Shown here one piece after another: positions 4,427 to 38,641 of a DNA stretch of 46,671 bases. Source of the stretch: a phage; NCBI GenBank assembly GCA_030877765.1, contig GCA_030877765.1_4853.1, one strand, 5' to 3'. The position numbers and the translations under genes were made by a program. A model generated the notes under the pieces. The model was not told the origin of the DNA, searched no databases, and saw only the letters and a program-made list of their open reading frames with translations. Positions within the stretch are counted from its first letter, which is position 1, and the number at the start of each line of letters is the position of its first letter.

Positions 4427-4471
4427 TTTCCGTTACATTGCAAGTAACTTTTATTTGTTACTAACGATACA

Positions 4472-4897
4472 TTAATCTACGTCATCCAGCAAGCCAAAAT
4501 AGAAAAGCGTGGCTTTTTTTAATTCATCAAGCCCATAAGCTATGGCAGCATAATGACCAAGCCTGCACATCTCTGTTAGCACTGCTGATTGATCCTTGCT
4601 CACCCTGCTTTTGCTTTTATCGCGGCGCTTTGCTTCAATCATCCCACAACTGTGATTTACCCCCGGAGTCATTATCACATTGTCGCCTATACCAGCCTTA
4701 ACCCCCATCTTCTGGCGCTTCAGCACAAACTGCACCCTGCTTGATGTGCCAGTTTCGTTGGGTACATGAAACCACAGAACATCAGGGAAGCGGTGTTGCA
4801 TCCATGTTCCATAACCCATCTGGTCAGTCTCCTCTTTTGGGCATTCTCCTCGATAACCGCTATCAAATACCCATATACCGCTATCAAGCTGCTTCAC
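4472..4897 (-). CDS. VRR-NUC domain nuclease
   Basis: FHVPNE ... GMIEAKRR pattern typical of VRR-NUC (PD-(D/E)XK fold). Confidence 0.65.
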   Translation of the reverse strand: MKQLDSGIWVFDSGYRGECPKEETDQMGYGTWMQHRFPDVLWFHVPNETGTSSRVQFVLKRQKMGVKAGIGDNVIMTPGVNHSCGMIEAKRRDKSKSRVSKDQSAVLTEMCRLGHYAAIAYGLDELKKATLFYFGLLDDVD

Positions 4898-4907
4898 TTT
4901 GTTATCC

Positions 4908-6812
4908 TTAAAATTCTTTTCGGTGGATTATGTCGCGACCTTTATCATTAATACGATGCGTGATGCGTTTTGGCGCTTTAATCAACCCCGCATACATCAT
5001 GAACTGCTTGGCGTTCTGGTATTTCAATATTTTCCCAGCCATTGACTTATCATCAAGGTGTGGGAATACAGCCTTTGCCTTGAACATGTTTTTCATGTGA
5101 GTTGCGCCGCCATAAGGGTAGAAAACTTCATTAGCCCAGCCTTCTTTGCCATCACAACGGTTAATCCAGTAGCGATATAAAATCCCCTCTCCGTCCTTCG
5201 TTAGTTGAACCTTGAAATCCATAACATCAGCCCACTCGTTATCTGTATAAGCACGCTCATTCAGTGCCGAATTAGGGTCGCGCAACACGTGATCGCAATG
5301 TCTGCAATAGCGCGCAGTGGGGTCGTTTTTAGTGCCGCAACCATCATCAAAAATCCGGATTCCGTGCTTATCAAAACCGCAACGGATGTAACTGAAAAAT
5401 TCTTCGCAGCGACCATCTGGAGATAGCGGGTCTTTCCCTATGCATCGACGCGCATATGGGCTGTTCATTGTTCCACATGTATGACACGGAACTTGTTCGC
5501 CACTGCGTTTTGAACGTTGCGCTTCAGCCTCTTCCAGAATCGGGTCTTCATACAGCTGACCAAGCTCAAACATCGTGCCAGAGAAATCAAGAACCAGATG
5601 GTCTTCTTTATGATACCCGGCATCAATTTGCTCTTTCTTCAGTAGGCGCATTCCGCGACCAAGAAGCTGGACAAGGAGAGTTAGCGACATTATTTTTCGC
5701 AATATGCAGCTCGTATCCCATAACGGTATATTTACGCCAGTGGTAAGGGCGGCTATCTGGAATGTGAATTTTTTACGCCCGGTGTATGCATCTTTTAGAG
5801 CCTTCCTTCTGGCTTTTGACCCCATATCTTCTGTAACTATTGAATAACTTCCTTCGGGTAGGTATTTTGCCGCCTCCTGACAATGTTTTTTACCAGCACA
5901 TGTAATCAGTACGCCGTTTCTGTTTTTAGTCAACTCCATAACCTTGAGCATGATTTTCTGCGTCAACGTACCTTGCTCAAGAATTTCTTTCTGCATCTGC
6001 TTGAGCTGCTCGGCGGTAAAGTCCTGAGTACCATCAACATCTGAACCATGAAAATCCGAAAGGTCATAATGCAGACTATCAACATCATGAAGACCAAAAA
6101 TTGTTGGAACAAGAAAACCGTTTTCAACCATGTACTTGGTGTCTATGTTGATAATCTCTTTCTTCCAGAAAGCGCCTTTTATTGATGTAGTTCCGCGAAA
6201 CGGTGAGCCTGTATAACCTATTATTCTCAACTCATGGCCATGCTTATCTTTACACCTTTTCATTAGCTCATTAATTATCACTGCATACTGCGTATCACCA
6301 TTATTAACAACATCAATGTCATTAACCATATGATTTTCATCGATCAGCAGGAATCTTGGGCAAAAGTCAGAGAGCGCACCTTTTGCAATAACATTCCCAT
6401 GCTCATCTTTTTTATCAAACAAAGCATTTACAACAGTACCCTCAGAACCACAGATTATTGGGTACGTAGAACTTTTCCTACCCAACGAAGCACTGAATAG
6501 CGAGTTTCTAACACCAAGCAACCATAGCTCTTCCGCATCTTGCTCCACTATTTCGCCCTGTCTTGATAAAATCATCCCTGAATAGCCCATCTCCTGAAAA
6601 CGCTTTGCTATCATGGCAATCATCAGTGACTTTCCGCTACCGACACTTGCTGTTACATAGCTTGGGCCAACATAATGACGAATCACATCGCCAGTTAACT
6701 TATATATCAACCACTGATAGGGTCTTGGCTCGATATCACCAGTATCCAGATAAGATTTCAGCAGATTAATATCAATCTCTGAAATCATTTTGTCGATTTT
6801 ATGCATTACCAA
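4908..6812 (-). CDS. SF2 DEAD/DExH-box DNA helicase with C-terminal Cys-rich zinc-finger region
   Basis: Walker A ASVGSGKSLM, DExH box LLIDENHMV, helicase C-domain motifs, C-terminal CHTCG...CRHCDH clusters. Confidence 0.85.
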   Translation of the reverse strand: MVMHKIDKMISEIDINLLKSYLDTGDIEPRPYQWLIYKLTGDVIRHYVGPSYVTASVGSGKSLMIAMIAKRFQEMGYSGMILSRQGEIVEQDAEELWLLGVRNSLFSASLGRKSSTYPIICGSEGTVVNALFDKKDEHGNVIAKGALSDFCPRFLLIDENHMVNDIDVVNNGDTQYAVIINELMKRCKDKHGHELRIIGYTGSPFRGTTSIKGAFWKKEIINIDTKYMVENGFLVPTIFGLHDVDSLHYDLSDFHGSDVDGTQDFTAEQLKQMQKEILEQGTLTQKIMLKVMELTKNRNGVLITCAGKKHCQEAAKYLPEGSYSIVTEDMGSKARRKALKDAYTGRKKFTFQIAALTTGVNIPLWDTSCILRKIMSLTLLVQLLGRGMRLLKKEQIDAGYHKEDHLVLDFSGTMFELGQLYEDPILEEAEAQRSKRSGEQVPCHTCGTMNSPYARRCIGKDPLSPDGRCEEFFSYIRCGFDKHGIRIFDDGCGTKNDPTARYCRHCDHVLRDPNSALNERAYTDNEWADVMDFKVQLTKDGEGILYRYWINRCDGKEGWANEVFYPYGGATHMKNMFKAKAVFPHLDDKSMAGKILKYQNAKQFMMYAGLIKAPKRITHRINDKGRDIIHRKEF

Positions 6813-7069
6813 ATCCTCGCACCAAGACGTTCAATTGTTTGTTTCTTTGTTTCATCATCTATTCCGCTATAAAAATACATATAACTAAGATTCCATAGAT
6901 AATCTTCTGGTCGCTCATCGGCAAACAAATCATCCCACTCAAAAATCCATTCTCCAGTTCTCTGTCTTCTGTATATGGTTAGCCATGTATTGCTTCGTGG
7001 CGGGTATCCGAAGGCAACAGGGATTGGCTTGCCATGAAAAATCCTCTTAAAAATGCTATCAAGGAACAC
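6806..7069 (-). CDS. Hypothetical protein (87 aa)
   Basis: ORF in operon orientation, overlapping the helicase start. Confidence 0.45.
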   Translation of the reverse strand: MFLDSIFKRIFHGKPIPVAFGYPPRSNTWLTIYRRQRTGEWIFEWDDLFADERPEDYLWNLSYMYFYSGIDDETKKQTIERLGARIW

Positions 7070-7084
7070 TGCTATATCCTTTTA

Positions 7085-7125
7085 TTGATGTTTCTACGTC
7101 AGTTAGCTTATACTCAATCTACACC
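7085..7125 (+). promoter_or_regulatory. Sigma70-like promoter for the primase gene
   Basis: TTGATG, 18 bp, TATACT, then AATCTACACC at the predicted start region. Confidence 0.4.
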
Positions 7126-7144
7126 AACAATCAAGGGTAAATTT

Positions 7145-8098: not shown

Positions 8099-8103
8099 AA
8101 TAA

Positions 8104-8127
8104 ACCATCCGACTGGAGGGTTTTTGT
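8104..8127 (+). terminator. Putative terminator after primase
   Basis: Imperfect stem ccatcc/ggaggg followed by TTTTTGTT. Confidence 0.4.
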
Positions 8128-8890: not shown

Positions 8891-10443
8891 TTCAACCTCG
8901 GATTTATGTGAACAGTGTTTCCGATAAATACGCAGTAACCATCCTCTTCAAGTGATGGCAATACACTTGATCTGAGTCGGTCATAAATTTTAGGTATCCC
9001 TTTGAATGGTCGCACGTTTTTAAGTGAATCATAAAGCCACTTCACCGTTACGCTATTTTTCCCTTTCTGAGCGGCGGAGCGTAGTTTTTCGGCAACAACA
9101 TCAAACTCAGATCGTTCACCAGCATACCCATTTGATTCAACAGCATCAGTGAACGTTTTTGTCAGTGCGTCATAAACACTGATGGCGCGACTAATTTCAT
9201 TTTCACCGATAATCTTTGAACGCTTTCCTCCATCGCACCAGTTTTCAGCAGCGTGAAATATTGCTGCCAGACGTATTATTTGCTTATCAGCTTTACCCAT
9301 CGCGCCACGAAGAAGAACGTGGTCCCACTTACCGCCGGGAAGGAAGTTTTTCTCCCACTGATTTCGTAACAGGCCGATCATTCTTGCTGAGTCATTGTGA
9401 AGCGTCAGTTTTGTTTTTTCTGCTGACACAACATTATGTATAAATCTTGCATATTCCGACCTCAAGCTGTCTGGCATTGGCTTGCTTACAGGGCAATCAT
9501 TAACCATGTCCCAGTGTTCGCGATAGCCAAGCATTGATTGCTCTCGCAACATCAGGAAACGTTCAGAAAGACCGTTCCCCCTGTCGCCAGCGGCAAGAAT
9601 GGCATCAATACTTTCATCCTGCGCAATCACACTTATGTTTCCAAGCACGTAACCAGATGAAACGCCACGACCAACACGAGCAGAGCCAATGAATCCGCCA
9701 TCCCATCCCTTCAGGATGACTTCGGCGTTTGCCTTTCCACCTTCCTTTCCGTAAGAGAGGCCAAGACATGTGTTAAGAACGCTTGCCTCGTCACTTATCA
9801 GATTAAAAAAGCCACCTTCATGGATTGCCTGATGCTGAACAGCCTCCGGCGTTGCGTCAGTAAGTGGGTATGTAATCGTATAAAGCTCTTCCAGCTTCTC
9901 CTTTTCCCGAGCAATATCGTCGCCGATTAGTGCCTTTGCATTCTGATTGCTGGCCTCTTTATATGCCTTCATCAATTCTTCAATGCGAAGATTTATTTTT
10001 ATGATCTGCTTTTCCATCTTTTTGGAAAGGTTGTCATATTCAATCTTCACCGGATTCATGTGCATTGAGTTGATAGCGGTTTTCCCTGCTGATGGAGGCT
10101 GAGAAGTAACCACGTAAAGAGAAACTGGAAGCTCTGAATGGTAATACTCAACGCTAAAGTTTCTCGTCATTGCGCTGGCGACGCAACCAAGTAAATGCAT
10201 GAACGATGTATTTATTGGGAACTGAACTGCGCGAGCTGCAGCGATTGCATAACGAGACAGCAAATCAGTCCTGTGCTCACTGGTCAGTTCTGTTTCTGAA
10301 TACGTTACATCACGCTCCTTACCTTCCTTGATGTCCAGCCACATATTTGAGCTTGGTATCATGCCATAATGGAAGGCAACGCGAGCCGGAGATACTTTCA
10401 ATTCCCTTGCTTCGTTGAAGATGTCTTGAGCTGTGATCATCAT
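8887..10443 (-). CDS. Large replication-associated protein with P-loop (possibly DUF3987-like primase/helicase-associated)
   Basis: 518 aa, first large gene of the leftward operon next to the iteron region; P-loop-like SQPPSAGKT. Family assignment is uncertain. Confidence 0.55.
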   Translation of the reverse strand: MMITAQDIFNEARELKVSPARVAFHYGMIPSSNMWLDIKEGKERDVTYSETELTSEHRTDLLSRYAIAAARAVQFPINTSFMHLLGCVASAMTRNFSVEYYHSELPVSLYVVTSQPPSAGKTAINSMHMNPVKIEYDNLSKKMEKQIIKINLRIEELMKAYKEASNQNAKALIGDDIAREKEKLEELYTITYPLTDATPEAVQHQAIHEGGFFNLISDEASVLNTCLGLSYGKEGGKANAEVILKGWDGGFIGSARVGRGVSSGYVLGNISVIAQDESIDAILAAGDRGNGLSERFLMLREQSMLGYREHWDMVNDCPVSKPMPDSLRSEYARFIHNVVSAEKTKLTLHNDSARMIGLLRNQWEKNFLPGGKWDHVLLRGAMGKADKQIIRLAAIFHAAENWCDGGKRSKIIGENEISRAISVYDALTKTFTDAVESNGYAGERSEFDVVAEKLRSAAQKGKNSVTVKWLYDSLKNVRPFKGIPKIYDRLRSSVLPSLEEDGYCVFIGNTVHINPRLK

Positions 10444-10679
10444 GAAATCCTTTTTACGTAAACCATGTCTTTATCAGGGTATCCAACCTTTGTTGAGAAT
10501 TTCATTCCTTCATTCCTGCGCATGAAGTAGTTTAATGCGTTCCTCAGGTTTGCAATTCCTCCAAACCTCTTCGAGTTAATCATCACAGTCTCACCTACTG
10601 AAACCGCCGACAACCCAGAAAGAGCTGCATTCTTTTTGCCGTACTTGTCAAGTTTCACAAAAGCCTCCAACAGCAACAA
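10440..10679 (-). CDS. Small hypothetical protein (N-terminus uncertain; likely the 47-aa product from internal ATG near 10583)
   Basis: Track ORF begins at a TTG; internal ATG (MINSKRFGG...) has a GGTGA RBS. Confidence 0.3.
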   Translation of the reverse strand: MLLLEAFVKLDKYGKKNAALSGLSAVSVGETVMINSKRFGGIANLRNALNYFMRRNEGMKFSTKVGYPDKDMVYVKRIS

Positions 10680-10730
10680 ATTATAATTGAATCATATCAT
10701 AACTATTGAATCATGCAACATCAAATACGA

Positions 10731-11040
10731 CTCACGTGGGTAGCGTGGGGAAGCCGTGGGGAACATCACCTTCCCCACGAAGTTTCACTCTAAGTATATG
10801 TAATATAATATAATTATTATTATTTGGGTTAATGGGTAATATTATTATTCATATTATAGATAGTAATTAACATAATATTAACAAATGGATTATTTGAATA
10901 TATTTATAAGGGGATGGGTATGAAATCTTCCCCTTTTTACCCACGAAAAATAAAAACATTAAAATCAATTATTTACGATGAAAAACGTGGGGCAACTGAC
11001 CTTCCCCACGGCTTCCCCACGGGTAAAAATTTACCCCACG
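10731..11040. repeat. Iteron array flanking an AT-rich core (candidate origin/operator region)
   Basis: About nine copies of (T)YCCCCACG(G) or its complement CGTGGGG in both orientations at 10732-10779, 10939-10946 and 10986-11040, either side of a ~140-bp AT-rich stretch (10795-10935). Confidence 0.7.
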
Positions 11041-11063: not shown

Positions 11064-11092
11064 TTGACGTAGAATCACAACTGATGTAGATT
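11064..11092 (+). promoter_or_regulatory. Rightward early promoter
   Basis: TTGACG (11064-11069), 17-bp spacer, TAGATT (11087-11092); GAGGG RBS and ATG at 11123 downstream. Confidence 0.55.
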
Positions 11093-12695: not shown

Positions 12696-12849
12696 ACAGA
12701 AAGTCTGGCAACTCGCAAAGCAGCACGAATTAGACGATTTCATCGAGAAGGTTGCAAAGACATTCCCTGACGCGCTTGAAGTCGTTCATGTGCAGACGCG
12801 AAATGAAAATGCATGGTGCTACACAAAAAATCATACAAATGGTAGATGA
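12682..12849 (+). CDS. Hypothetical small protein (55 aa)
   Basis: ATG at 12682 within track ORF 12616-12849. Confidence 0.3.
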   Translation: MQTTKQKVWQLAKQHELDDFIEKVAKTFPDALEVVHVQTRNENAWCYTKNHTNGR

Positions 12850-13276
12850 AATGAAGCTAACAAAAAAACAACGCGAAGAGCTACGCATGAAGTTCGGTGG
12901 TCGCTGTGCTTATTGTGGGTGTGAGCTACCCGAGAAAGGTTGGCATGCAGACCATGTTGAACCAGTGCTACGTAAATCTGAGCAGTGCATGAAGGCAGCG
13001 GCGAAAGGGATTTTCAAGCTGAAGGCAACCGGTGAGCTATATCGACCAGAAGCAGAGCGACTGGAAAACCTTTACCCTGCGTGCGCCCCCTGCAATCTGA
13101 TGAAAACTTCCTATTCCCTGGAAATGTTCAGGAAGCAGGTATCTCTTCAGGTTGCTCGTGGGCGCAAAAGCAGCATGAATTTCCGCACTGCAGAGCGTTT
13201 CGGTCTTATCGCCGTGGTGGAGAAACCAGTTGTTTTCTGGTTTGAGAAATACCAGGAAGAGAACGAAAAAAAATAA
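12839..13276 (+). CDS. HNH endonuclease (terminase-associated type)
   Basis: CAYCGCEL...HADHVEPV...ENLYPACAPCNLMK: Cys4-type HNH motif, positioned just upstream of the terminase genes. Confidence 0.8.
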   Translation: MVDEMKLTKKQREELRMKFGGRCAYCGCELPEKGWHADHVEPVLRKSEQCMKAAAKGIFKLKATGELYRPEAERLENLYPACAPCNLMKTSYSLEMFRKQVSLQVARGRKSSMNFRTAERFGLIAVVEKPVVFWFEKYQEENEKK

Positions 13277-13410
13277 ATGTGTTTATGATGCTCTGTTGGC
13301 AAGCGCGATAATGATGGTGTACAATAAACGCATAACCACCATTGCTTTCACTTATATCATCACCCAACCTTTAAACCGCCTTGTGCGGGTTCTTTTTTAT
13401 CTACGTCTAT

Positions 13411-13450
13411 GTGTTAAAATTAGCGTATGTGTGTTAAAATTAGCGTATGT
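13411..13450. repeat. Perfect 20-bp tandem direct repeat x2
   Basis: GTGTTAAAATTAGCGTATGT at 13411-13430 and again at 13431-13450, between the HNH gene and terS. Confidence 0.9.
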
Positions 13451-14019: not shown

Positions 14020-14532
14020 ATGCGACCCTTAAAAGAAGAAAAACTCACGCAAGACAGGCTGAAAGAGTTGCTGCATTATAACCATGATACTGGTATTTTC
14101 ACATGGGTTCAGCGCGCCTCAAAAAGCGTAAGAGTTGGTAATTCAGCTGGCAGTAAGAATAAGTCAGGCTATATAGATATACGCATCGATAAGTCTTTAC
14201 ACAAAGCTCATCGGCTTGCGTGGCTTTACATTTATGGTGTGTGGCCCAATGGGAAAATAGATCACATCAATAACGTGAAGACAGATAACAGAATCTGCAA
14301 CCTGAGAGAAGCAAGCAATAATGAAAACGGATGGAATGCTGGTAAACCATCGACAAATACGTCAGGAGTAAAAGGTGTGAGTTGGGATGCAGAGAAAAAT
14401 AAATGGAAGGCGCATTGCAGGGTTTTTGGGAAAAAATATACAGTAGGTAGGTTTTCATCAAAAGAATATGCTGAGAGAGCCGTGGCGGAGTTCAGAGAGA
14501 AACATCACGGGGAGTTTTTTAATCATGGCTAG
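14020..14532 (+). CDS. HNH-AP2 homing endonuclease (paralog 2 of 4), between terS and terL
   Basis: AHRLAWLYIYGVWPNGKIDHINNVKTDNRICNLR followed by NTSGVKGVSWDAEKNKWKAHCRVFGKKYTVGRF. Confidence 0.85.
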   Translation: MRPLKEEKLTQDRLKELLHYNHDTGIFTWVQRASKSVRVGNSAGSKNKSGYIDIRIDKSLHKAHRLAWLYIYGVWPNGKIDHINNVKTDNRICNLREASNNENGWNAGKPSTNTSGVKGVSWDAEKNKWKAHCRVFGKKYTVGRFSSKEYAERAVAEFREKHHGEFFNHG

Positions 14533-15965: not shown

Positions 15966-16004
15966 TTGACCAATCTACACCGAGCGCATAGTATAATCTA
16001 CATC
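15966..16004 (+). promoter_or_regulatory. Sigma70-like promoter
   Basis: TTGACC, 17 bp, TAGTAT overlapping TATAAT; two AATCTAC boxes inside. Confidence 0.55.
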
Positions 16005-16025
16005 AGGCTTATCGGAGATATCACT

Positions 16026-16232
16026 ATGCGCAGCTATGCAGGGTTCACACAGGAGGAGAAAGAGCAGGTTTATTCACTGGCTCGGGCTGGTGTGCCAGAT
16101 GAGGTGATTTGCCGTCGGTATGACATCGACGAGGATTTCCTGCTGCGCGTTATTGATGATGTCTTCGTTAACCTGCAAGAGAAGCGCGGATATAAAGGTA
16201 TCTGCTGCAAGAATGATTTTTTGAGAGGGTGA
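16026..16232 (+). CDS. Hypothetical protein (68 aa)
   Basis: ATG 16026 downstream of the promoter; track ORF 15966-16232 is over-extended. Confidence 0.45.
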   Translation: MRSYAGFTQEEKEQVYSLARAGVPDEVICRRYDIDEDFLLRVIDDVFVNLQEKRGYKGICCKNDFLRG

Positions 16233-17162: not shown

Positions 17163-17183
17163 CCATATACCATCCATGCTATA

Positions 17184-17212
17184 ATCCCATCCAACGTGAT
17201 GGGATTTTTTAT
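17184..17212 (+). terminator. Rho-independent terminator immediately upstream of the portal gene
   Basis: 8-bp stem atcccatc/gatgggat, 6-nt loop, TTTTTTATT; a TGCTATAAT extended -10 overlaps its 5' side. Confidence 0.65.
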
Positions 17213-20899: not shown

Positions 20900-20931
20900 C
20901 TTCATCACCTCATTCATCACTTGATATAGAT

Positions 20932-20977
20932 ACTATGCACCACCAACCAATCTACGTCAACACCATTGTGATAGAAT
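20932..20977. promoter_or_regulatory. Divergent promoter pair
   Basis: Minus strand TTGACG, 17 bp, CATAGT; plus strand extended -10 TGaTAGAAT. The core CACCACCAACCAATCTACGTCAACA recurs at 34160-34190. Confidence 0.55.
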
Positions 20978-23121: not shown

Positions 23122-23423
23122 TATTTAATCTCTCCGTTCAGTTCATTAACAATTAACGTTGCATAGCCAGCAATATCTTTCCAGCTGTCATCATAAGTCG
23201 GGTCGCCATTCAGAATGCGCCCAATCTTGTGCTGAATCATGTCGAGCGCCTCGCGTTGACTTGGTGTGAGATTGCGCCAGCCATCTACCTTGCGCATCAC
23301 ATCTTTCAACTCCTGCATAATTTCAGCGCCGTCTTTGAATTTACCGTATCGACTACCGCGTTCGGTGATGAGTCGCTCTGTTGCGTCAGTATGGCGCTTA
23401 TCGCCCGTGATTTGTGAACTCAT
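23121..23423 (-). CDS. Hypothetical protein (100 aa)
   Basis: Operon-coupled ORF. Confidence 0.45.
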   Translation of the reverse strand: MSSQITGDKRHTDATERLITERGSRYGKFKDGAEIMQELKDVMRKVDGWRNLTPSQREALDMIQHKIGRILNGDPTYDDSWKDIAGYATLIVNELNGEIK

Positions 23424-23910
23424 TGTGATGCATTCTCCTGAATTCTTTTATTTTTGCTTCTGCTTCTCTTATGTCGGAAAAGTAACCAACTGTGAATCTT
23501 TTGCCATTTACTCCAACTCTTGCATGCCACTTGTTGTGCGATGAACTCCAGTTAACCCCCTTGATACCGCTAGTGTTGTTTTTGTTCATTGCTTTGTTGT
23601 GGCTATTCTCAAATTTGCTGGCCTCCCTTAAATTGCACGCCCTGTTGTCATTGCGAATGCCATTAATGTGGTCAATCATTTCACTTGCTGGCGCGCCATG
23701 AATGCATATCCATGCCAATCTGTGAGCAAGAAAAGCCCTACCGCAAAGAATTATTTGCACATATCCATCTGGCTTTAAGTAGCCAGCCACACTCCCTTTT
23801 TCTGCAATCCTATTCCTTGTCTTTAGCCATTTAAATTCCCCAGTTAGTGGATTGTAGTAAAGGTAACTCAATATAAACTCCCTACTCGGCTCATCTCTCC
23901 TATGCCTCAT
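23398..23910 (-). CDS. HNH-AP2 homing endonuclease (paralog 3 of 4)
   Basis: AHRLAWICIHGAPASEMIDHINGIRNDNRACNLR followed by NTSGIKGVNWSSSHNKWHARVGVNGKRFTVGYF. Confidence 0.85.
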   Translation of the reverse strand: MRHRRDEPSREFILSYLYYNPLTGEFKWLKTRNRIAEKGSVAGYLKPDGYVQIILCGRAFLAHRLAWICIHGAPASEMIDHINGIRNDNRACNLREASKFENSHNKAMNKNNTSGIKGVNWSSSHNKWHARVGVNGKRFTVGYFSDIREAEAKIKEFRRMHHNEFTNHGR

Positions 23911-24113
23911 TTCTCATCCTCTTTCATTGTCACCCTATTATTCTCGTCAACACTGAAGTTGGCCCGAATCAAATCATACATATCTTCCTTAGGCATATCA
24001 GCCAGCGCCACATAGCAACGGGCGAAGTAGCGAACATCACGGAGTGTCAGCGGTTGTCGCTTCTCCACAATGCTGGTGATAATGTCCATCGGCTCGCGTC
24101 GTGGTCTTGGCAT
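23907..24113 (-). CDS. Hypothetical protein (68 aa), first gene of leftward cassette B
   Basis: AAGGAG RBS; ATGA overlap with the HNH gene. Confidence 0.5.
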   Translation of the reverse strand: MPRPRREPMDIITSIVEKRQPLTLRDVRYFARCYVALADMPKEDMYDLIRANFSVDENNRVTMKEDEK

Positions 24114-24140: not shown

Positions 24141-24201
24141 TTGACGTTTCTACATCATTTAGTCAATACTTGTTGACGTAGATTGTACCACAACGGAAAA
24201 G
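24141..24201. promoter_or_regulatory. Divergent promoter region with two TTGACG boxes
   Basis: TTGACG at 24141 and 24173, the second as TGTTGACGTAGATT; separates leftward cassette B from rightward genes. Confidence 0.4.
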
Positions 24202-24212
24202 GTGATGTGGAA

Positions 24213-24470: not shown

Positions 24471-24665
24471 ATGGCGCATGACGAACTGTACGAAGAATCG
24501 TTAATCCAGAGGTTGAATGAAGTTGAGCGCACTCGCGAATGGCTGGAGTGCGAGTTACGAGAAGTGCGCAACCGCCTGCAACGCAAGCGCAGTCAGCAAA
24601 GAGATGTCATCGACTGGTCTGGGGGTACACCTAAATTTAACAATCTGGGAGAATGGTTGAAATGA
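24471..24665 (+). CDS. Hypothetical protein (64 aa)
   Basis: Track ORF in operon orientation. Confidence 0.4.
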   Translation: MAHDELYEESLIQRLNEVERTREWLECELREVRNRLQRKRSQQRDVIDWSGGTPKFNNLGEWLK

Positions 24666-25192
24666 GCAACATTAGTAAGGAAAGCATTTTAAAGTTCCTC
24701 CAGCATGATGAAAATACAGGAAACTTTCTATGGATTGATAATTTCTCAAGAAAATCAAAGAAAGGGAAGGTGGCTGGAGGTATTACATCGCATGGGTATT
24801 GGAGAATTCAACTCCCCATCGGGAGGTTTTACGCACACAGAATGGCGTGGATTGTTTGCAATGGAGATATACCAAACGGATATGAGATTGATCACATAAA
24901 TGGGAACAAGAAAGATAATCGCATCAGCAACCTAAGATTGGTCACAAGAGGTCAAAATGTTATGAATGTAGGCGTGAAAAACAATAATACAAGCGGAGTT
25001 AAGGATGTTGTTTGGGACTCTTCGCGAGAAAGGTGGAGGGTTCAAATTACAGCCAATGGCAAGCATTATTATGGAGGTAGATTCTCGTCAATAACACAAG
25101 CAAAAGAGGAGAGGAACAGGCTCATAAAGATGGTTCACGGGAAATTTTTGAATACAAAAGGTGAGCAATATGACACTACTAATGAACGATGA
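24653..25192 (+). CDS. HNH-AP2 homing endonuclease (paralog 4 of 4)
   Basis: AHRMAWIVCNGDIPNGYEIDHINGNKKDNRISNLR followed by NTSGVKDVVWDSSRERWRVQITANGKHYYGGRF. Confidence 0.85.
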   Translation: MVEMSNISKESILKFLQHDENTGNFLWIDNFSRKSKKGKVAGGITSHGYWRIQLPIGRFYAHRMAWIVCNGDIPNGYEIDHINGNKKDNRISNLRLVTRGQNVMNVGVKNNNTSGVKDVVWDSSRERWRVQITANGKHYYGGRFSSITQAKEERNRLIKMVHGKFLNTKGEQYDTTNER

Positions 25193-25406
25193 GAAATTAC
25201 TTGAATGCCCGTTTTGTGGTTGTGATGACGTAAGTGTTATTGATGACGGCGAATGGTTGCACGTTGAGTGCGGAGATTGTTTTTGCCGCACTGACTCGTA
25301 TTGCTGCGCATCCACGGCAATGAAGAAATGGAACACAAGAGGTGGACACCTCTACACTTCCGACGACTTCAATCAGGCAGCAGAGGAGCGTGATTATGGA
25401 CTATAA
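25170..25406 (+). CDS. Lar-like restriction alleviation zinc-ribbon protein
   Basis: LLECPFCG...HVECGDCFC...AMKKWNTRG matches the Lar family CxxC..CxxC..WNTR pattern. Confidence 0.55.
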   Translation: MTLLMNDEKLLECPFCGCDDVSVIDDGEWLHVECGDCFCRTDSYCCASTAMKKWNTRGGHLYTSDDFNQAAEERDYGL

Positions 25407-25884
25407 ATCACAAATCATGCGCGTGATTATGAATCACCCCGGAGCAACGCGCGCATACATTGAGAAGCATTGCGGAGGTAAGCATTCAAGCACCACAACG
25501 CATCGCTTACATGAGATGCTTGCTCTTGGATTCATTCGTCGCGAGAAGTCAGTGATTCGCGGCGGCAAGTGGCAGTATAAATATTTCATCTCTGATGATG
25601 CAGCCGGTATTGATGATGCTATTAAGTGCCATTTGCTTGATAACGCTGGCGCGGAAGTGAAAGAAATCAGTACCACCAATGGCATTGATTATCGCATCGT
25701 GAAAAGCCGCATCCGCATTATGTTTCATAACGGTGATGTGACGCGAAGCTATGACCACCACAAGAAGCTGTGGCGTTATTCATGGAAGGAGAAGGAAGTC
25801 AATGTAAGCAATCTATTTAATTCACTTCTTCGCAGCGTAAGGGGTCAGCATGGGAAAAGCCAAACGCAAGAAGCAAGAGTATGA
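25396..25884 (+). CDS. Hypothetical protein with N-terminal winged-helix-like region
   Basis: IMRVIMNHPGATRAYIEKHCG...HRLHEMLALGFIRRE resembles a MarR-type wHTH. Confidence 0.45.
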   Translation: MDYKSQIMRVIMNHPGATRAYIEKHCGGKHSSTTTHRLHEMLALGFIRREKSVIRGGKWQYKYFISDDAAGIDDAIKCHLLDNAGAEVKEISTTNGIDYRIVKSRIRIMFHNGDVTRSYDHHKKLWRYSWKEKEVNVSNLFNSLLRSVRGQHGKSQTQEARV

Positions 25885-27034: not shown

Positions 27035-27050
27035 TCATGGGCTGCTATAA
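27035..27050 (+). promoter_or_regulatory. Extended -10 promoter (TGcTATAAT) ahead of the capsid module
   Basis: GGGCTGCTATAATTTAAT within an inverted repeat; same TGCTATAAT as at 17178. Confidence 0.4.
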
Positions 27051-27208
27051 TTTAATCAGGAGGTAGCCCATGAACACAATCCCTATCACCTACTTTCTCA
27101 CGCTATACGCACTCACCAATTCGCCATTGTTTGCACTGGCTACCGCCTCGTGGTGCTATATCTCCCTGTGTTATAATTCGACCACAAACTAACCGTGGAG
27201 AGTTAACC

Positions 27209-29102: not shown

Positions 29103-30176
29103 ATGGAAAAGATTATTTTTACCAAAGACTTGGTAGCCAACTCCGCAGTGGTGGCTGACCAGTGGAAACATCTCACCATCGACCGCAAGGTGTTCTGCAA
29201 TGCAGAAGCTGAACTGGCGAAAACATACGGTGTTAACGCCACCGCGCTGGTAACGAAAGATTACTGGCGCGACGTGGATAACGTCACCACCCGTGTTTTC
29301 CGCAACGAAGCTGGCCAGGACATGATGGCTGACCTGATGGGTATCGCGGCAAACATTAACATTGGTAAGACTGTGGCAATCAGCCGCATTGCTTCCGATG
29401 CTGGCAAGGTAGTCCGCACTCTGTCTGGTCAGGAGCCGGAAGACTTGGATAAAACTCGCTACGATTACACTGGCGACGTGATTCCAATCTTCAAAACTGG
29501 CTACAGCCGCGAATGGCGCGAACTGCTGGGTATGCAGTCTGAAGGTTTTGACCCCCTGCTGGACGATCAGGCTAACGTCACCTTTAACCTACGTTCCGAC
29601 ATGGCGCAGTATCTGCTGACCGGCGACCAGACTCTGAACGTGAACGGCGTTTACACTGGCTACGGTATCACCAACCACCCGAACACCATTCAGGTCAACC
29701 TGAACATTCACGATGGCGGCCTGAATATCGACCTGCAAACCGCAACGCCAGATGAAATCGTGAAATTCTTCAATCAGGATTTCCAGGCTATTCTGGATGC
29801 GCAGAACGTATTTGAGCAGGTGACTCTGTGGGTTTCCCCGGCAGTGCGTCGCAGTTTCATGCGTCCGTATTCTAATGCGGCTGGCTTCAAAGGCGGCACG
29901 GTTGAGCAGTACATCACGCAGTTCGGTAATGGTCGCATTGGTAAGATTGGCACCAACTTCCTGCTGACTGGCAACCATTTCGTTGGTTACGTTCGCAATG
30001 ACATGTACATCCGTCCGCGTGTTGCTCAGCCTGTCTCCACCTATGCGGCAGCTCGCACCAACCCGCACGATAACTTTAACTTCCTCGTATGGTCTGCTTT
30101 CGGTCTGCAGATTCGCAAGGATGCCGCTGGAAAAAGCCGCGTCTTTAATGGCTATGGTAGCCAGGAAGCTAAATAA
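29103..30176 (+). CDS. Major capsid protein
   Basis: 357 aa, strong RBS, followed by a strong terminator; lambda E-like position and size. Confidence 0.65.
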   Translation: MEKIIFTKDLVANSAVVADQWKHLTIDRKVFCNAEAELAKTYGVNATALVTKDYWRDVDNVTTRVFRNEAGQDMMADLMGIAANINIGKTVAISRIASDAGKVVRTLSGQEPEDLDKTRYDYTGDVIPIFKTGYSREWRELLGMQSEGFDPLLDDQANVTFNLRSDMAQYLLTGDQTLNVNGVYTGYGITNHPNTIQVNLNIHDGGLNIDLQTATPDEIVKFFNQDFQAILDAQNVFEQVTLWVSPAVRRSFMRPYSNAAGFKGGTVEQYITQFGNGRIGKIGTNFLLTGNHFVGYVRNDMYIRPRVAQPVSTYAAARTNPHDNFNFLVWSAFGLQIRKDAAGKSRVFNGYGSQEAK

Positions 30177-30996: not shown

Positions 30997-31082
30997 AAAG
31001 TCACTCCTAATTTGGTTTTATATTACCACGAGTGTAACTAGTGTGCTACAATTAACCAGCATTAACTCATGAGGATATTTAA

Positions 31083-32170: not shown

Positions 32171-32172
32171 TG

Positions 32173-32967: not shown

Positions 32968-33777
32968 TCACATCTTCTCCAGAATTGCCATAACCTCGTG
33001 AATGTCAGCAACAGGAATCTGAATAAATTCCTCATCCTCTGCCACCACATGACCAGCAGGGAGAATTACATGGTCAGCTGGCTTCAGTAACTCAATCAGG
33101 CGGTCTACTGGCTTAATCTTTTTCGACTTCAGCACTTTGGCTGTGACCTTATCCTTGCCTTGCGCCTTCGCTTCTTCGACCGCTTCGTCGATAACTTTTA
33201 CCGCATCATCTCCATGTTCGCGCGTTACCGCTACGGCATTTGCATAGCTGATCTGTCCGGCACTGATTCGCGCTTTTACTTCCGCAGGCACATCACCCAA
33301 CGACAGGTGCATTTGCACGTCAGATACTGAGCGGCCTACCTTCTTGGCGATTTCCTCGTTTGTCCAGCCAAAACCTTTCAGACGCGTGTAAGCCTTTGCG
33401 CGTTCAAACGGGTCAAGTTGCTTGCCCTGACTTGATGACACCATGAATGCGATTTTGTCAGCCTCGTCGCCAGTAAAATCCTTACACTCAATGCGAACGA
33501 TTGGTGCGCCGCGCTCAATGGCTCGCAATGCGCCGAGGTAGCGATGCTGCCCATCAAGAATGCGGATACCTTTATCGTCAGGAATAACTGTTAATGCTGG
33601 CAATGGCTGACCTGACTCCCAGCACTGCGCGAAATATTCCACATGCTGCTCATCTGCTTCACGGATGTTGTATCCCGGCTCCAGATAGATTTGCTCTACT
33701 GGCACGAGGTAGGTTTTGTTAACAGCGATACCGTTACGCGTTTCTTTGTCTGAATAGATTTTGCTTAGTGTTTTCAT
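32968..33777 (-). CDS. ParB N-terminal domain (ParB/Srx-like) nuclease-type protein
   Basis: ILDGQHRYLGALRA motif; central HTH-like segment (EEIAKKVGRSVSDVQ). Confidence 0.7.
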   Translation of the reverse strand: MKTLSKIYSDKETRNGIAVNKTYLVPVEQIYLEPGYNIREADEQHVEYFAQCWESGQPLPALTVIPDDKGIRILDGQHRYLGALRAIERGAPIVRIECKDFTGDEADKIAFMVSSSQGKQLDPFERAKAYTRLKGFGWTNEEIAKKVGRSVSDVQMHLSLGDVPAEVKARISAGQISYANAVAVTREHGDDAVKVIDEAVEEAKAQGKDKVTAKVLKSKKIKPVDRLIELLKPADHVILPAGHVVAEDEEFIQIPVADIHEVMAILEKM

Positions 33778-34118: not shown

Positions 34119-34159
34119 TTTCATCACCTCTAATATTTATTGTTGTTTCTACGTCACTA

Positions 34160-34205
34160 ACTATAAACGCACCACCAATCTACGTCAACAGGAATATGCT
34201 AAAAT
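34160..34205. promoter_or_regulatory. Divergent promoter pair (duplicate of 20932-20977)
   Basis: Minus strand TTGACG, 17 bp, TATAGT; plus strand extended -10 TGcTAAAAT. Confidence 0.6.
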
Positions 34206-34783: not shown

Positions 34784-34828
34784 TTCAAATCTATAAGTGC
34801 TGGAAACATATTATCAGCGAGACTCGCA

Positions 34829-35486: not shown

Positions 35487-35824
35487 CTTCACTGGCTAAC
35501 TGGAGCTACACGCAACCATGCACCATCTGGCACAAAAGAGGCACTGACAAGTACGGCAAGCCAACTTTTGACGCGCCAGTGAGCATCATGTGCGATTATG
35601 GCTTTAACGATGATGTATCGACCGATGCGAAAGGCAATGAGATTGTGCAGAAAAATACATTCTGGACAGAATACACTGACGCTAATGTTGGTGATTACAT
35701 CATGATTGGCACGGTGACAGAAGCTGACCCGCTGGCGGCTGGCGCAAATCAGATTCTGAATGTGATTAACTATGGCTCAACTTTCAACAGGTCAGAGCCA
35801 CCTGACTTTGCACTGGTGACATAA
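35477..35824 (+). CDS. Putative head-tail joining protein
   Basis: 115 aa, overlapping start; lambda FII-like position. Confidence 0.45.
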   Translation: MQMTSLANWSYTQPCTIWHKRGTDKYGKPTFDAPVSIMCDYGFNDDVSTDAKGNEIVQKNTFWTEYTDANVGDYIMIGTVTEADPLAAGANQILNVINYGSTFNRSEPPDFALVT

Positions 35825-36222
35825 TGCCAGCGAAATTAAGAGGCGTCCGACAGGCCGTAGAGAGAACATCGCAGATTGTGGATGAGATAATCGCCACGAA
35901 AGCTGTGCGTGCAATTAAGTCAGCGACATACATCATCCGCACCGAATCAGCCACGCTAACGCCAATTGATACATCAACGCTAATTAACAGTCAGTTTGAT
36001 ACCGTGGAAGTTAGCGGAACGCGAATCACTGGCAAGGTTGGCTACTCTGCAAAATATGCACTGTACGTCCACAATGCCAGCGGTAAACTTGCAGGGAAAC
36101 CGCGCAGCAACGGCAACGGCACGTATTGGTCGCCGGGTGGTGAACCACAATTCCTGACCAAAGCAGCGCAACGCACAAAAGACCTTGTTGATAGCGTGAT
36201 TAAGAAGGAGATGACACTCTAA
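35824..36222 (+). CDS. Putative tail completion protein
   Basis: 132 aa; position and size. Confidence 0.45.
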   Translation: MPAKLRGVRQAVERTSQIVDEIIATKAVRAIKSATYIIRTESATLTPIDTSTLINSQFDTVEVSGTRITGKVGYSAKYALYVHNASGKLAGKPRSNGNGTYWSPGGEPQFLTKAAQRTKDLVDSVIKKEMTL

Positions 36223-36596
36223 TGAATATGCTTGAACTGGTTGATGCATATCTTCAGGATGCAGGATTGTACGATGGCTGGACTTCGCAGCTGCAGTTCT
36301 GGAATGACACCGGAGATGGAAGTGAGCAATTTATTGTTCTGCAATCCAACGGTGGCACTCAGGTTATGGATGGCCTCGGCGGTGACTTCTATTTTTCGCT
36401 GTATGTTGTTGGCAAACAAGGCCAATACAATGTTGCTGATGTTGATTCGAAGGCCAATGAGATTATCGAATACATCAAAACACACCCGATTGATTCATGC
36501 GTTAACTACATCCAGTTGCAAGCGCCACTTGGCAGGGCAATGCTGACGGAAGAAAAAAGACCAGTGCATGAACTGCTATTACGTGTTGTGAAATAA
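36222..36596 (+). CDS. Putative tail terminator protein
   Basis: 124 aa; immediately before the major tail region. Confidence 0.45.
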   Translation: MNMLELVDAYLQDAGLYDGWTSQLQFWNDTGDGSEQFIVLQSNGGTQVMDGLGGDFYFSLYVVGKQGQYNVADVDSKANEIIEYIKTHPIDSCVNYIQLQAPLGRAMLTEEKRPVHELLLRVVK

Positions 36597-36597
36597 A

Positions 36598-36624
36598 TAA
36601 AGCCGCATGAAGCGGCTTTTAATT
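36598..36624. terminator. Bidirectional terminator
   Basis: Stem agccgc/gcggct with 5-nt loop; T-runs on both strands. Confidence 0.75.
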
Positions 36625-36701
36625 TGGTGGACACGGACGGATTTGAACCTTCAATCAGCCGATTATTAGTCGGTTGCTTTAACCAATTAAGCTACGCGTC
36701 C
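36625..36701 (-). tRNA. tRNA-like gene (77 nt including encoded CCA); apparent anticodon AAU
   Basis: Minus strand folds by eye: 7-bp acceptor stem with one G-U, D-arm GCTT/AAGC, anticodon stem-loop with loop CTAATAA, T-loop GGTTCAAATCC, discriminator A plus CCA. One mismatch each in anticodon and T stems. Confidence 0.55.
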
Positions 36702-37199
36702 ATAAGTGCTGGTTTAAGCATTGCCAGCGTGCTTTCTTAACATCCAGCCCCGTAACCCATACATACCCCTACATATGATTGCGATAATGCTGGATATTAA
36801 GTGTTGTGGTGGCCGGTGCTGATCTCCGGCATAAGGCGCTTATTCGGCGGCGTCGAGCTTGCTTATTCGCTTGAGCCATCCTCGTGAGTCAGCCACGTCC
36901 CACTGCGCATCAGCCTGCGCATTCACCACAACGGAAAGAGCACTGATGCGCTCACTTGGGACTCCTTAGCCATAACCCACGGGCTTCTGGTACACCAATG
37001 CTCTTACCTGTTGTGTTCCCTGACTTATTAATCACACCTCAGGGACGCAGTGCGCCGAATTTGTTTACAAGGAATCGGAAGACCTTGCTGACTTACAGGC
37101 TATTACGCCGCCATCAGAACAACATCATCGTTTGCATTTATCTTTGTGGTCAGTTTCTAAAAAGTCCGCAAAGTCGCTCACGAAAACTATCTGAAATAC

Positions 37200-37243
37200 A
37201 ATCTACACCACAAAATAATCGCTGTCAACACCTGTGATATAAT
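37200..37243. promoter_or_regulatory. Divergent promoter pair: leftward into the non-coding locus, rightward for the major tail gene
   Basis: Minus strand TTGACA (37228-37223), 17 bp, TAGATT (37205-37200); plus strand extended -10 TGaTATAAT (37235-37243). Confidence 0.6.
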
Positions 37244-37279
37244 CACCACGTTAGCAGCTAACACAATTCGGAGATCGAA

Positions 37280-37999
37280 ATGGCTATTTGTGCAAATGAT
37301 AAAGGCGTTCTGGTCGGTCGCATGACCCGACTGTTCCTTGCTGAAGGGTGCGGCGACGCAGTTCCGGATGCAGGCGACTGGAAGTATTTAGGCTCAACCA
37401 CCAGTAAAGGCGTTGACTACTCGCCGCAGACCACTACGTCGGAAGCGGATACCGCTGGCGGCTTTGTTTCTACTCTCGTTACCAGCTCTGATATGACCAT
37501 CAGTGCAGAGGTAGAAATCCGCAAGAATGACCCGAGCGATGAGTTTGGCTTCCATCGTCTTGTTGAGATTTACACCACTGAACTGAAGGCTCGCCGCCAG
37601 CCTTCCTTGTGGGTGCGTCAGGTGACTGGTGCAACTATCGTTACCGCGTATTGCAACATCACCAGCATCAGCTACGAAGGTGGCACGAACGATATCGTTA
37701 CTGGTAGCCTTGAGTTTAAGGTTTACGATTCTGACAGCGTTACCGTAGAAAGCCTTGAACCTCTGGCATTCACTACCGACCTGCAATCAACTGGCACGGC
37801 CGGAATCCCGTTAACCGTTGCTGTTGAAGGTGGCGTTGATCCTTACACTTATGTATGGCGCAAAGATGGCGCAGTTGTTGATGGTGAGTCTGGCGCATCT
37901 CTGGCAAGCCCTACCGCTGGCGTGCATACCGTCACGGTAACTGATTCATCTACCGACCCGGAAATTATCATCAGCACGGCGTGCACGGTATCCCGATAA
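37280..37999 (+). CDS. Major tail protein with C-terminal Ig-like domain
   Basis: 239 aa, GGAG RBS; Thr/Val-rich Ig-like C-terminus as in lambda V; followed by a strong terminator. Confidence 0.7.
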   Translation: MAICANDKGVLVGRMTRLFLAEGCGDAVPDAGDWKYLGSTTSKGVDYSPQTTTSEADTAGGFVSTLVTSSDMTISAEVEIRKNDPSDEFGFHRLVEIYTTELKARRQPSLWVRQVTGATIVTAYCNITSISYEGGTNDIVTGSLEFKVYDSDSVTVESLEPLAFTTDLQSTGTAGIPLTVAVEGGVDPYTYVWRKDGAVVDGESGASLASPTAGVHTVTVTDSSTDPEIIISTACTVSR

Positions 38000-38004
38000 A
38001 GAAA

Positions 38005-38030
38005 AGCCCCGAAAGGGGCTTTGTTTTATT
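38005..38030. terminator. Bidirectional terminator
   Basis: Stem agcccc/ggggct with gaaa loop, TTGTTTTATT. Confidence 0.8.
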
Positions 38031-38226
38031 CTTGTGGTGGTTCTGGCGGATTGGCCCAGTGGGTAGCTGGAATTCCGTGACAGCAGTCCAATTCACTAAC
38101 AAATATCTTGCTGCCAATATTATCGACAGCTTTACATACCGCAGTTCTAACAACACCGCGAAATGCTGTAAGAACCATCGTTCCTTCTTCTGGCATTCGC
38201 TCACTACACTTAATCCACTGGCTCAT
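38026..38226 (-). CDS. DUF551-like protein
   Basis: MSQWIKCSERMPEEGTMVL matches the DUF551 N-terminal signature. Confidence 0.55.
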   Translation of the reverse strand: MSQWIKCSERMPEEGTMVLTAFRGVVRTAVCKAVDNIGSKIFVSELDCCHGIPATHWANPPEPPQE

Positions 38227-38366
38227 ATCACCTTGTCCTCATCAAAAATCACGCCAATAACGCGAAGTAAGTCTTTCGCCATGCGTTCCGCTTCCTCGTA
38301 GTCGTAACCTGCATCAACATACAAATCAGTGTAGAAAATCAGGTCAGCTTTTGTTTGTTCGTTCAT
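38223..38366 (-). CDS. Small acidic protein (47 aa)
   Basis: ATGA overlaps at both ends with the Imm-like and DUF551-like genes. Confidence 0.3.
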   Translation of the reverse strand: MNEQTKADLIFYTDLYVDAGYDYEEAERMAKDLLRVIGVIFDEDKVI

Positions 38367-38557
38367 TTCTTGTCGCCACTGTTAACTAATGCCCAAACAA
38401 GTGCCGCAACCCATCCAATAAAGCTCCACCCGACAAGAATATTCAGTACACAGATTGCTGTCGTGTTTGTGTGCTTGCGTTGCAAAGCCACAAATGATGG
38501 AAGAAGATAAACAAATATAACCAATCCAGCAAAAAGCAACAAAATAACAACATCCAT
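38363..38557 (-). CDS. Superinfection immunity (Imm-like) small membrane protein
   Basis: Two TM helices; LPSFVALQRKHTN...LNILVGWSFIGWVAALVWAL matches the Imm superinfection-immunity family pattern. Confidence 0.6.
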   Translation of the reverse strand: MDVVILLLFAGLVIFVYLLPSFVALQRKHTNTTAICVLNILVGWSFIGWVAALVWALVNSGDKK

Positions 38558-38592
38558 AACTCACCTCATTCATATCTCGTTTCGATGATTTG

Positions 38593-38641
38593 AATCTACA
38601 TCACCACCTCGCAGGTGTCAACACTACTGAGATGATATAAT
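38593..38641. promoter_or_regulatory. Divergent promoter pair: leftward for the Imm cassette, rightward for the tail assembly genes
   Basis: Minus strand TTGACA (38621-38616), 17 bp, TAGATT (38598-38593); plus strand extended -10 TGaTATAAT (38633-38641). Confidence 0.6.

Follow-up and report, generated by a model that had tools for sequence, protein, structure and literature searches.

The operators and stoperators of cluster A mycobacteriophages, which are bound by repressors such as L5 gp71 and the TipsytheTRex repressor, are among the closest described counterparts of the element considered here. Monomeric phage repressors are known to recognize more than 20 dispersed asymmetric 13-mers, with 2 DNA-binding domains in the monomer (PMC9283540). 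We analyzed a 46,671-nucleotide (nt) stretch of phage DNA (contig GCA_030877765.1_4853.1 of GenBank assembly GCA_030877765.1; the whole stretch is referred to below as the window) and found that an asymmetric 11-bp box recurs across its predicted promoter regions. As in cluster A, the consensus is short and asymmetric (a 13-mer there, an 11-mer here), and more than 10 to 20 copies are scattered across the genome, within promoters or short intergenic gaps. The cluster A repressor binds without dimer symmetry, and a MarR-like protein that is one of the candidate binders of the box likewise has 2 DNA-binding domains in one chain. Unlike the cluster A phages, which are temperate and in which the binding protein is the immunity repressor, the phage studied here belongs to a virulent group. 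Furthermore, stoperator orientation tracks transcription, whereas the boxes occur in both orientations, with a strand bias limited to 11 of 14, and the operator role of the box is putative.

The C1 operators of phage P1 are also asymmetric (17 bp) and form many scattered sites, single or paired, over the promoters of unrelated operons, although their sequence and protein are different, P1 is temperate, and a C1 homologue is not evident here. Other counterparts concern the control of structural genes. The MotA box of T4 is an asymmetric site of approximately 10 bp with an A/T-rich 5' end, which occupies approximately −35 to −25, replaces the −35 element and is combined with a good, often extended −10. 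In the switch governed by T4 AsiA and by gp39/gp76 of Thermus phage P23-45, early-type promoters have a −35 and the structural ones a TGn extended −10, a dichotomy which in the window is a prediction from sequence. In phi29, protein p4, bound between the back-to-back promoters A2b/A2c and A3, represses the early promoters and favors the −35-less late one.

An asymmetric box in predicted promoters

Alignment of the recurring sites yielded the asymmetric 11-mer consensus WWTCTACRYCA (complement TGAYGTAGATT). The word AATCTAC/GTAGATT occurs 14 times in the window, against 4.2 expected; 10 copies occupy non-coding positions (4474, 7116, 11086 on the minus strand, 15972, 15995, 20949, 24178 on the minus strand, 34177, 37200 and 38593), and the remaining 4, within coding DNA, are probably chance matches. 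The longer pattern AATCTACRYC has 10 matches against 0.25 expected, a count reached in no shuffle, and TCTACRTCA has 11 against 0.65 expected, bringing in variant boxes at 7093, 11065, 24149 and 34148. A weight matrix of the 11-mer retrieves 14 sites with scores of at least 13.7 (4474+, 7091+, 7116+, 11065−, 11082−, 15972+, 15995+, 20949+, 24147+, 24174−, 34146+, 34177+, 37200+ and 38593+), compared with 0.53 in genome simulations and 0.04 in pooled intergenic simulations under a first-order Markov model, as well as 2 degenerate sites (13398+ and 20922−). Because the matrix was derived from the same 14 sites, the exact-pattern tests are the independent ones. A sequence-only reading of this DNA had drawn attention to AATCTAC(A/G)(C/T)C at more than 10 intergenic sites; its positions are borne out, the motif is enriched over expectation, and it now extends to 14 sites, a defined 11-mer, a limited set of promoter registers and clade-wide conservation.

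The boxes are spread over 9 loci, with none in convergent, terminator-only gaps, and 12 of them are strictly intergenic, that is, within the 7.3% of the window that is non-coding; the box at 4474 overlaps the last codons of a gene and that at 37200 lies inside a doubtful open reading frame (ORF). Eleven of the 14 point toward the structural-gene strand. Information content is limited to approximately 11 to 13 positions and drops to background level beyond them, and neither a hidden dyad nor a partner at constant spacing is conserved within 30 nt on either side, indicating that the box is a self-contained asymmetric element. It is not palindromic, since its self-complementarity is limited to the central ACGT and is lost altogether in the ACAC and ACAT variants. 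A short asymmetric consensus without a dyad partner, present in many copies in promoters and short intergenic gaps, is shared with the dispersed phage operators of the L5/P1 type. An RNA motif was considered and rejected, because the Rfam matches are confined to transfer RNA (tRNA) and several boxes lie upstream of predicted start sites.

Promoters were scanned for at least 9 of 12 hexamer matches with a spacer of 16 to 18 nt, and box positions were compared in 6 genomes. The offsets of the box relative to sigma-70-like promoters are limited to +1, +6, +18 and +25 to +33, and 13 of the 14 window boxes overlap a predicted promoter of this type. In the first register (opposite orientation, +1), the complement TGACG, as part of the fused word TTGACGTAGATT in the leftward cases, gives the −35 TTGACG of the leftward promoters 20960-20932 (box AATCTACGTCA, 20949..20959, plus strand) and 34188-34160 (box AATCTACGTCA, 34177..34187, plus) and of the rightward promoter 11064-11092, which precedes the gene block from 11123 (box ATTCTACGTCA, 11065..11075, minus). 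In the second (opposite, +18), the complement TAGATT is the −10 of that same rightward promoter (box AATCTACATCA, 11082..11092, minus) and of 2 leftward TTGACA-17-TAGATT promoters, 37228-37200 (box AATCTACACCA, 37200..37210, plus) and 38621-38593 (box AATCTACATCA, 38593..38603, plus), the latter serving a cassette that starts at 38557. The 2 boxes of promoter 11064-11092 are 17 bp apart, and the same pair is present in L001, L002, L003, L004, L005, L006, L007 and L009.

In the remaining registers, the box adjoins a hexamer. It stands directly past the −35 (same orientation, +6) in the rightward primase promoter 7085-7114 (−35 TTGATG; box TTTCTACGTCA, 7091..7101, plus), in promoter 15966-15994 downstream of the terminase gene (−35 TTGACC; box AATCTACACCG, 15972..15982, plus) and in the rightward early promoter 24141-24170 (−35 TTGACG; box TTTCTACATCA, 24147..24157, plus). 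It stands directly past the −10, over the start site and in either orientation (+25 to +33), at 4 places: 2 nt past the −10 TATACT of the primase promoter (box AATCTACACCA, 7116..7126, plus; same, +31); immediately 3' of the −10 TAGTAT of promoter 15966-15994 (box AATCTACATCA, 15995..16005, plus; same, +29); 3 nt past the −10 TATAGT of the leftward promoter 34188-34160 (box TTTCTACGTCA, 34146..34156, plus; opposite, +32); and past the −10 of the rightward promoter at 24141, where the box (AATCTACGTCA, 24174..24184, minus) also overlaps the extended −10 TGgTACAAT (24190-24182) of a leftward cassette promoter. These registers include all 3 placements described in the sequence-only reading, that is, TAGATT as a leftward −10, TTGACGTAGATT as the source of a −35 and a box overlying the start of rightward transcription (7116 and 15995). 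Nearly all strong predicted promoter regions of this phage and its relatives have the box in their core. Usually there are 2 boxes per promoter, 17 to 32 bp apart, in direct or inverted pairs. Relative to the overlapped promoter, the same and the opposite orientation are about equally frequent, so that a stoperator-type orientation rule does not hold.

The box that overlaps no predicted promoter (AATCTACGTCA, 4474..4484, plus) is located between the VRR-NUC and HNH/exonuclease genes, within a leftward operon. No −35 partner was found for it in the window; its orthologue in Klebsiella phage BUCT541 reads as TTGATG-17-TAGATT by eye, where the promoter scan called none. One of the degenerate boxes (TATCTATATCA, 20922..20932, minus; score 10.7) lies just past the −10 of the leftward promoter 20960-20932, and relatives have the full box TATCTACATCA in its place. 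The box at 37200 has seemingly no gene to its left, which is accounted for by a tRNA gene faced by its leftward promoter: tRNA-Ile (anticodon aat) at 36625-36701 on the minus strand, followed by a terminator at 36619-36599 and forming with promoter 37228-37200 a leftward tRNA unit (36599-37228). The 490 bp between this promoter and the tRNA are conserved and contain no clear gene; a Klebsiella relative has 3 tRNAs here.

The conservation of the box extends beyond what a promoter hexamer would require. Boxes in the same/+6 and post −10 registers contribute nothing to a hexamer, yet their 11-mer is equally conserved, and in the +1 and +18 registers 5 to 6 conserved positions fall outside the hexamer. 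The true hexamers of the box promoters vary (TTGATG, TTGACC, TATACT, TAGTAT, CATAGT), whereas the box is invariant. Given these conserved outside positions, the 2 orientations and the variable hexamers, sigma-70 contacts alone cannot account for the conservation of the box.

Extended −10 promoters and conservation of the box

When the annotation of Salmonella phage vB_SenS_ST1UNAM was carried over by tblastn, the packaging, head, lysis and tail genes, together with 2 blocks of small early-type genes, were found to form plus-strand operons, which are broken up by leftward (minus-strand) cassettes encoding recombination and replication proteins, a ParB-like protein, RusA, superinfection immunity and many small ORFs. 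The extended −10 class TGNTANAAT (TGnTAnAAT) has 18 copies in the window against 8.4 expected, 17 of them on the plus strand. Eleven are intergenic, 19 to 57 nt upstream of a gene start and correctly oriented; the genes behind them are 13477 (upstream of the terminase gene) and those for portal, lysis, prohead protease, head-tail, major tail, tail and tailspike proteins. No convincing −35 was found at any of these 11, and the predicted structural and lysis promoters thus belong to the −35-less extended −10 class of sigma-70 promoters. Two of them have no box, namely, the TGcTATAAT upstream of the portal gene (17177..17185, plus) and that upstream of ORF40 and the prohead protease gene (27043..27051, plus), the latter accompanied by a second element, TGtTATAAT, at 27169. 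The former sits directly on a strong terminator hairpin (17183-17206), so that a transcript from 17177 would begin inside the terminator stem. The divergent region 30997-31082 is also devoid of the box.

Five extended −10 promoters are each paired back to back with a leftward promoter that carries a box, the pairs occupying 20932-20977, 24141-24211, 34160-34205, 37200-37243 and 38593-38641. In the last 2 pairs, the partners of the TTGACA-17-TAGATT promoters are the TGaTATAAT elements of the major tail gene (37235-37243) and of the tail operon (38633-38641). In the lysis and head-tail promoters, the box that supplies the leftward −35 also occupies −35 to −25 relative to the extended −10 start: the box at 20949 is 23 nt upstream of the hexamer of the lysis-operon TGaTAGAAT (20969-20977), and that at 34177 is 23 nt upstream of the hexamer of the head-tail-operon TGcTAAAAT (34197-34205). 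This spacing (22 nt in one Roufvirus case) is kept in distant relatives despite a changed spacer sequence; further box-to-hexamer spacings are 24 nt in phage SB28 and 19 nt in the promoter upstream of gene 13477. The geometry of 34160-34205 and 20932-20977 resembles that of the phi29 p4 region, although p4 binds an inverted repeat at one locus, whereas here a single asymmetric box recurs at approximately 9 loci. The extended −10 elements and the divergent arrangement listed in the earlier reading are all present, with 2 of the elements shifted slightly in position (17177 instead of 17178, and 27043 instead of 27040).

Upstream of gene 13477, a weak box (TATCTACGTCT, 13398..13408, plus; score 11.3) is located between a terminator-like hairpin and a doubled extended −10; its orthologue in L005 and L131 is TATCTACGCCA. 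The doubling is due to a 20-bp tandem duplication (13404-13443) of the extended −10 TGTTAAAAT (TGtTAAAAT; 13412 and 13432).

The window (46.7 kb, 46.6% G+C) covers almost all of the circularly permuted genome of a virulent Skatevirus/Deseoctovirus-like siphophage. Its nearest relative is ST1UNAM (approximately 96% identity over 90% of a 20-kb probe), and further close relatives are the Escherichia coli phages ZCEC08, 6947 and C1 (Deseoctovirus) and the BASEL isolates Bas77-80. The BASEL isolates have been grouped under 'Skatevirus and relatives', with Roufvirus as the root, and the group is treated as lytic (PMC11990801). Neither an integrase nor an immunity repressor is present in the annotations of 3 relatives.

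Each of 9 relatives has 11 to 16 boxes at corresponding places; they include ST1UNAM, C1, Bas77, Segz_1, seszw, SB28 and the distant Roufvirus phages BUCT541 (Klebsiella) and pYD38-A (Vibrio). Two divergent metagenomic lineages also carry them, in one of which only approximately 4 of 16 kb can be aligned to the window DNA. When the lysis, major-tail and tail regions are aligned with Roufvirus, conservation is concentrated in islands formed by the box, the TGTCAA/−35 word and the −10, and the sequence between them has diverged; in the region of the tail promoter at 38593, the islands are the box and TGTCAA. In these comparisons, the box is a phylogenetic footprint across the Skatevirus/Deseoctovirus/Segzyvirus/Roufvirus cluster. 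It is identical in phages of Escherichia, Salmonella, Shigella and Klebsiella and of reported Vibrio and Aeromonas hosts, and all 14 boxes are retained in one sequenced 37.7-kb reduced genome of seszw. A scan of IMG/VR for TCTACRYCA-N6-26-TCTACRYCA recovered the same clade only, plus chance matches and coding tandem repeats in unrelated contigs; since it yielded no second phage group with the box, the binder could not be named by intersecting gene contents. A search of the literature gave no description of the motif, the lone phage paper containing the 11-mer having it within a polymerase chain reaction primer.

Two observations concern the distribution of individual copies. The extra boxes of SB28 (L009), at 30000-30031 and 18153, adjoin lineage-specific insertions, namely, a homing endonuclease upstream of the tail fiber gene and, ahead of the major tail gene, one that is anti-repressor-like, so that new cassettes bring or acquire boxes. 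In the unrelated viral contig L057, 3 tandem units of 23 bp (AAATCTACATCAAAACGATGTAA; 10406-10462) each contain the box word; the part of this contig that was analyzed revealed no homologue of a window protein, and the repeats are probably an unrelated iteron array.

A putative operator, its candidate binders and the alternatives

Since sigma-70 contacts cannot explain the invariant 11-mer, a trans-acting, sequence-specific protein is the economical explanation. Boxes that cover the start site or either hexamer region, 2 per promoter and without a fixed geometry, point to promoter occlusion. The reading that we favor, and to which we give about an even chance of being right, is that the box is the dispersed asymmetric operator of a phage-encoded, sequence-specific regulator that occludes −35-dependent promoters. 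One DNA-binding protein, most likely encoded by the phage, would dock at the box in the core of approximately 9 promoter regions and exclude RNA polymerase, so that the box-bearing, −35-dependent promoters would be shut down jointly. These promoters serve the tRNA unit, the primase gene, the blocks of early rightward genes, and the leftward cassettes for accessory functions and DNA metabolism. Transcription of the structural and lysis operons would start from −35-less extended −10 promoters, thereby freed of back-to-back competition and, in the lysis and head-tail operons with their box at −35 to −25, perhaps also assisted. The net effect would be that early and accessory genes are switched off while the structural genes take over. 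The proposal of the sequence-only reading, a binding site for a phage regulator that coordinates the accessory cassettes with the structural genes, thus survives in part: a regulator site is the best reading of an 11-mer that extends beyond the hexamers, is found in both orientations and persists as a footprint in distant relatives, with the binder narrowed to candidates, but the restriction to junctions between accessory cassettes and structural genes falls, as the box is also found within the recombination operon and in the promoters of the primase gene, of the early rightward block and of the region that follows the terminase gene. The box may serve coordination, repression or activation.

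Four window proteins are candidate binders. The first is a 162-residue MarR-like protein with 2 tandem winged-helix domains (25396..25884, plus), encoded in the early operon downstream of the boxes at 24147 and 24174. The second (16026..16232, plus) is a universal 68-residue protein with a three-helix, helix-turn-helix (HTH)-like fold, encoded by the first gene behind the two-box promoter 15966-16005; its predicted structure has a weak, fold-only resemblance to sigma region 4 and LuxR-type domains, and no relationship to a solved structure or to sigma-70 region 4 was found at the sequence level. Database gene calls for this ORF often stretch upstream across its own promoter, giving 113-residue versions. 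The third, also of 68 residues and with a basic N-terminal arm (MPRPRREP), is the product of the first gene of the leftward cassette beside the boxes at 24147 and 24174 (23907..24113, minus); all relatives have it, the minimal mutant and Roufvirus included, and scans of Pfam, PHROGs and NCBIfam gave no family assignment. The fourth is a 269-residue ParB/KorB-like HTH protein (32968..33777, minus; Pfam HTH_ParB 2.5e-11, KorB 7e-6), which is 80-99% identical across the clade. We rank it as less likely than the other 3.

Several observations weigh against occlusion by a phage-encoded operator-binding protein. The box at −35 to −25 of the lysis and head-tail late promoters, with its conserved spacing, fits activation equally well, and simple occlusion would silence the lysis and head-tail genes too. 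Promoters of the −35 type without a box exist at 10724-10696, 13296-13325 and 4443-4416. The promoters and start sites are predictions of a consensus scan and, as a class, are not enriched over shuffles; moreover, their overlap with the box arises partly by construction, because the box complement contains hexamer-like words. The MarR-like protein is 37% identical in Roufvirus, with a changed first recognition helix; its gene is deleted in the viable mutant seszw_160L and is absent from the syntenic place in L132, where the ORF has an hhalign probability of 0.2%. Being dispensable and poorly conserved, it is weakened as the binder. The HTH-like protein encoded at 16026-16232 is acidic, and the ParB-like gene has been naturally lost in SB28, apart from a 44-codon remnant, while the 16 boxes of this phage are kept. 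None of the candidates is compelling.

If the box is not an occluding operator, its position in the late promoters could be the functional one, as in T4. It would then be a promoter-specificity element at which a MotA-like activator replaces the −35 contact while a second factor disables sigma region 4. The conserved spacing of 22 to 23 nt at the lysis and head-tail promoters is what such an element would show, the SB28 promoter and that of gene 13477 add further cases, and all late promoters are of the −35-less extended −10 type, which survives inhibitors of sigma region 4 such as T4 AsiA and P23-45 gp39. However, MotA-like placement is seen at 2 to 4 promoter families, whereas most boxes are elsewhere (on the −10, past the −10, or in the spacer 17 to 18 nt from the −10) and in both orientations, so that the fixed position near −30 is not found; the spacings of 17 to 24 nt span over half a helical turn; the late promoters at 17177 and 27043 have no box; and no MotA or AsiA homologue was found among approximately 20 window proteins scanned with Pfam, PHROGs and NCBIfam. 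Membership in this class is unsupported; a MotA-like activator might act at the subset of boxes at −35 to −25 but does not account for the boxes in general, and we regard this role as unlikely. Dispensing with any additional factor is also conceivable, the 11-mer being a lineage-specific optimum of sigma-70 promoters or a word spread with mobile promoter modules. The box complement contains TGACG and TAGATT and acts as a −35 or −10 in 7 window promoters, but the hexamer-free boxes past the −35 and the −10 and the 5 to 6 conserved positions beside a used hexamer are left unexplained, hexamers elsewhere vary while the box does not, and flanks devoid of information indicate that larger modules were not copied. 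Accordingly, we see only a slim chance that no factor is involved.

Two further explanations change the identity of the protein. A host transcription factor or nucleoid protein used by the phage for timing would fit the identity of the box across phages of several host genera, all the more as each phage-encoded candidate has a weakness. On the other hand, 14 to 16 high-affinity sites for a host factor on a virulent phage would be unusual, no regulator of E. coli is known to us to recognize such a sequence, and the sites of DnaA, MetJ, NarL, EvgA, Cra and IHF, to our knowledge, do not fit the box; a host factor therefore has a small chance of being the binder. The ParB/KorB-like protein could act at the box as a KorB-style global silencer or in DNA partition or condensation, rather than as a repressor of the classical operator-binding type, considering that KorB of plasmid RK2 has a dozen promoter-associated sites. 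The clade-wide identity of the protein encoded at 32968-33777 parallels the invariance of the box, and its gene is kept in every listed deletion mutant of seszw. Nevertheless, SB28 retains its boxes without the gene, some of them at lineage-specific positions, a Jilinvirus phage with a 43% identical homologue has no box, and the sites of ParB and KorB (parS and OB) are palindromic, which the box is not. The protein is disfavored as the binder, and such a role is very improbable.

A more elaborate version of the favored reading, which we consider rather unlikely, combines the operator with the promoter dichotomy in a two-part takeover, in which the 68-residue HTH protein encoded at 16026-16232, or a partner, would recognize the box and transcription would then be handed over to the extended −10 promoters. 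The box complement mimics a fused −35/−10 (TTGACGTAGATT), and the protein might thus compete directly with sigma-70 for promoter DNA. If true, this would be a new early-to-late switch, functionally like T4 AsiA/MotA or P23-45 gp39 and unrelated to them in sequence, at work in a virulent siphophage with late operons interleaved among early cassettes.

Phages of the cluster (Skatevirus, Deseoctovirus, Segzyvirus, Roufvirus and relatives) are very often isolated on Salmonella, E. coli, Shigella and Klebsiella, have been proposed for biocontrol and therapy, and are represented in the BASEL reference collection. Approximately 9 promoter regions with one 11-bp site beside −35-less late promoters provide a testable handle on gene timing in these phages, and a few small, conserved proteins are left as candidates for the putative regulator. 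In phage engineering, the box flags sequence to be left intact when cassettes are deleted or replaced.

Other features of the genome

Five HNH or homing-endonuclease genes are present in the 46.7 kb (3800-4426, minus; 12788-13273, plus; 14020-14529, plus; 23401-23910, minus; 24662-25192, plus). Several of them are missing or substituted in close relatives, suggesting active homing.

An origin-like region is located at 10744-11040, between the replicative-helicase operon and the early rightward promoter. It contains 7 of the 8 window copies of CCCCACG, in 2 inverted clusters (10744-10779 and 10986-11040) that border approximately 200 bp of AT-rich DNA. At 10443-10766 on the minus strand, a 108-codon gene of ST1UNAM matches at 98% identity, and an in-frame stop in the window leaves an ORF of 79 codons (10440-10679); the box-less promoter-like site 10724-10696 is just upstream of this shortened ORF. 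Finally, the ORFs 42256-42726 and 42602-43189 overlap upstream of the tail protein gene and resemble the usual tail-chaperone pair with a programmed frameshift.

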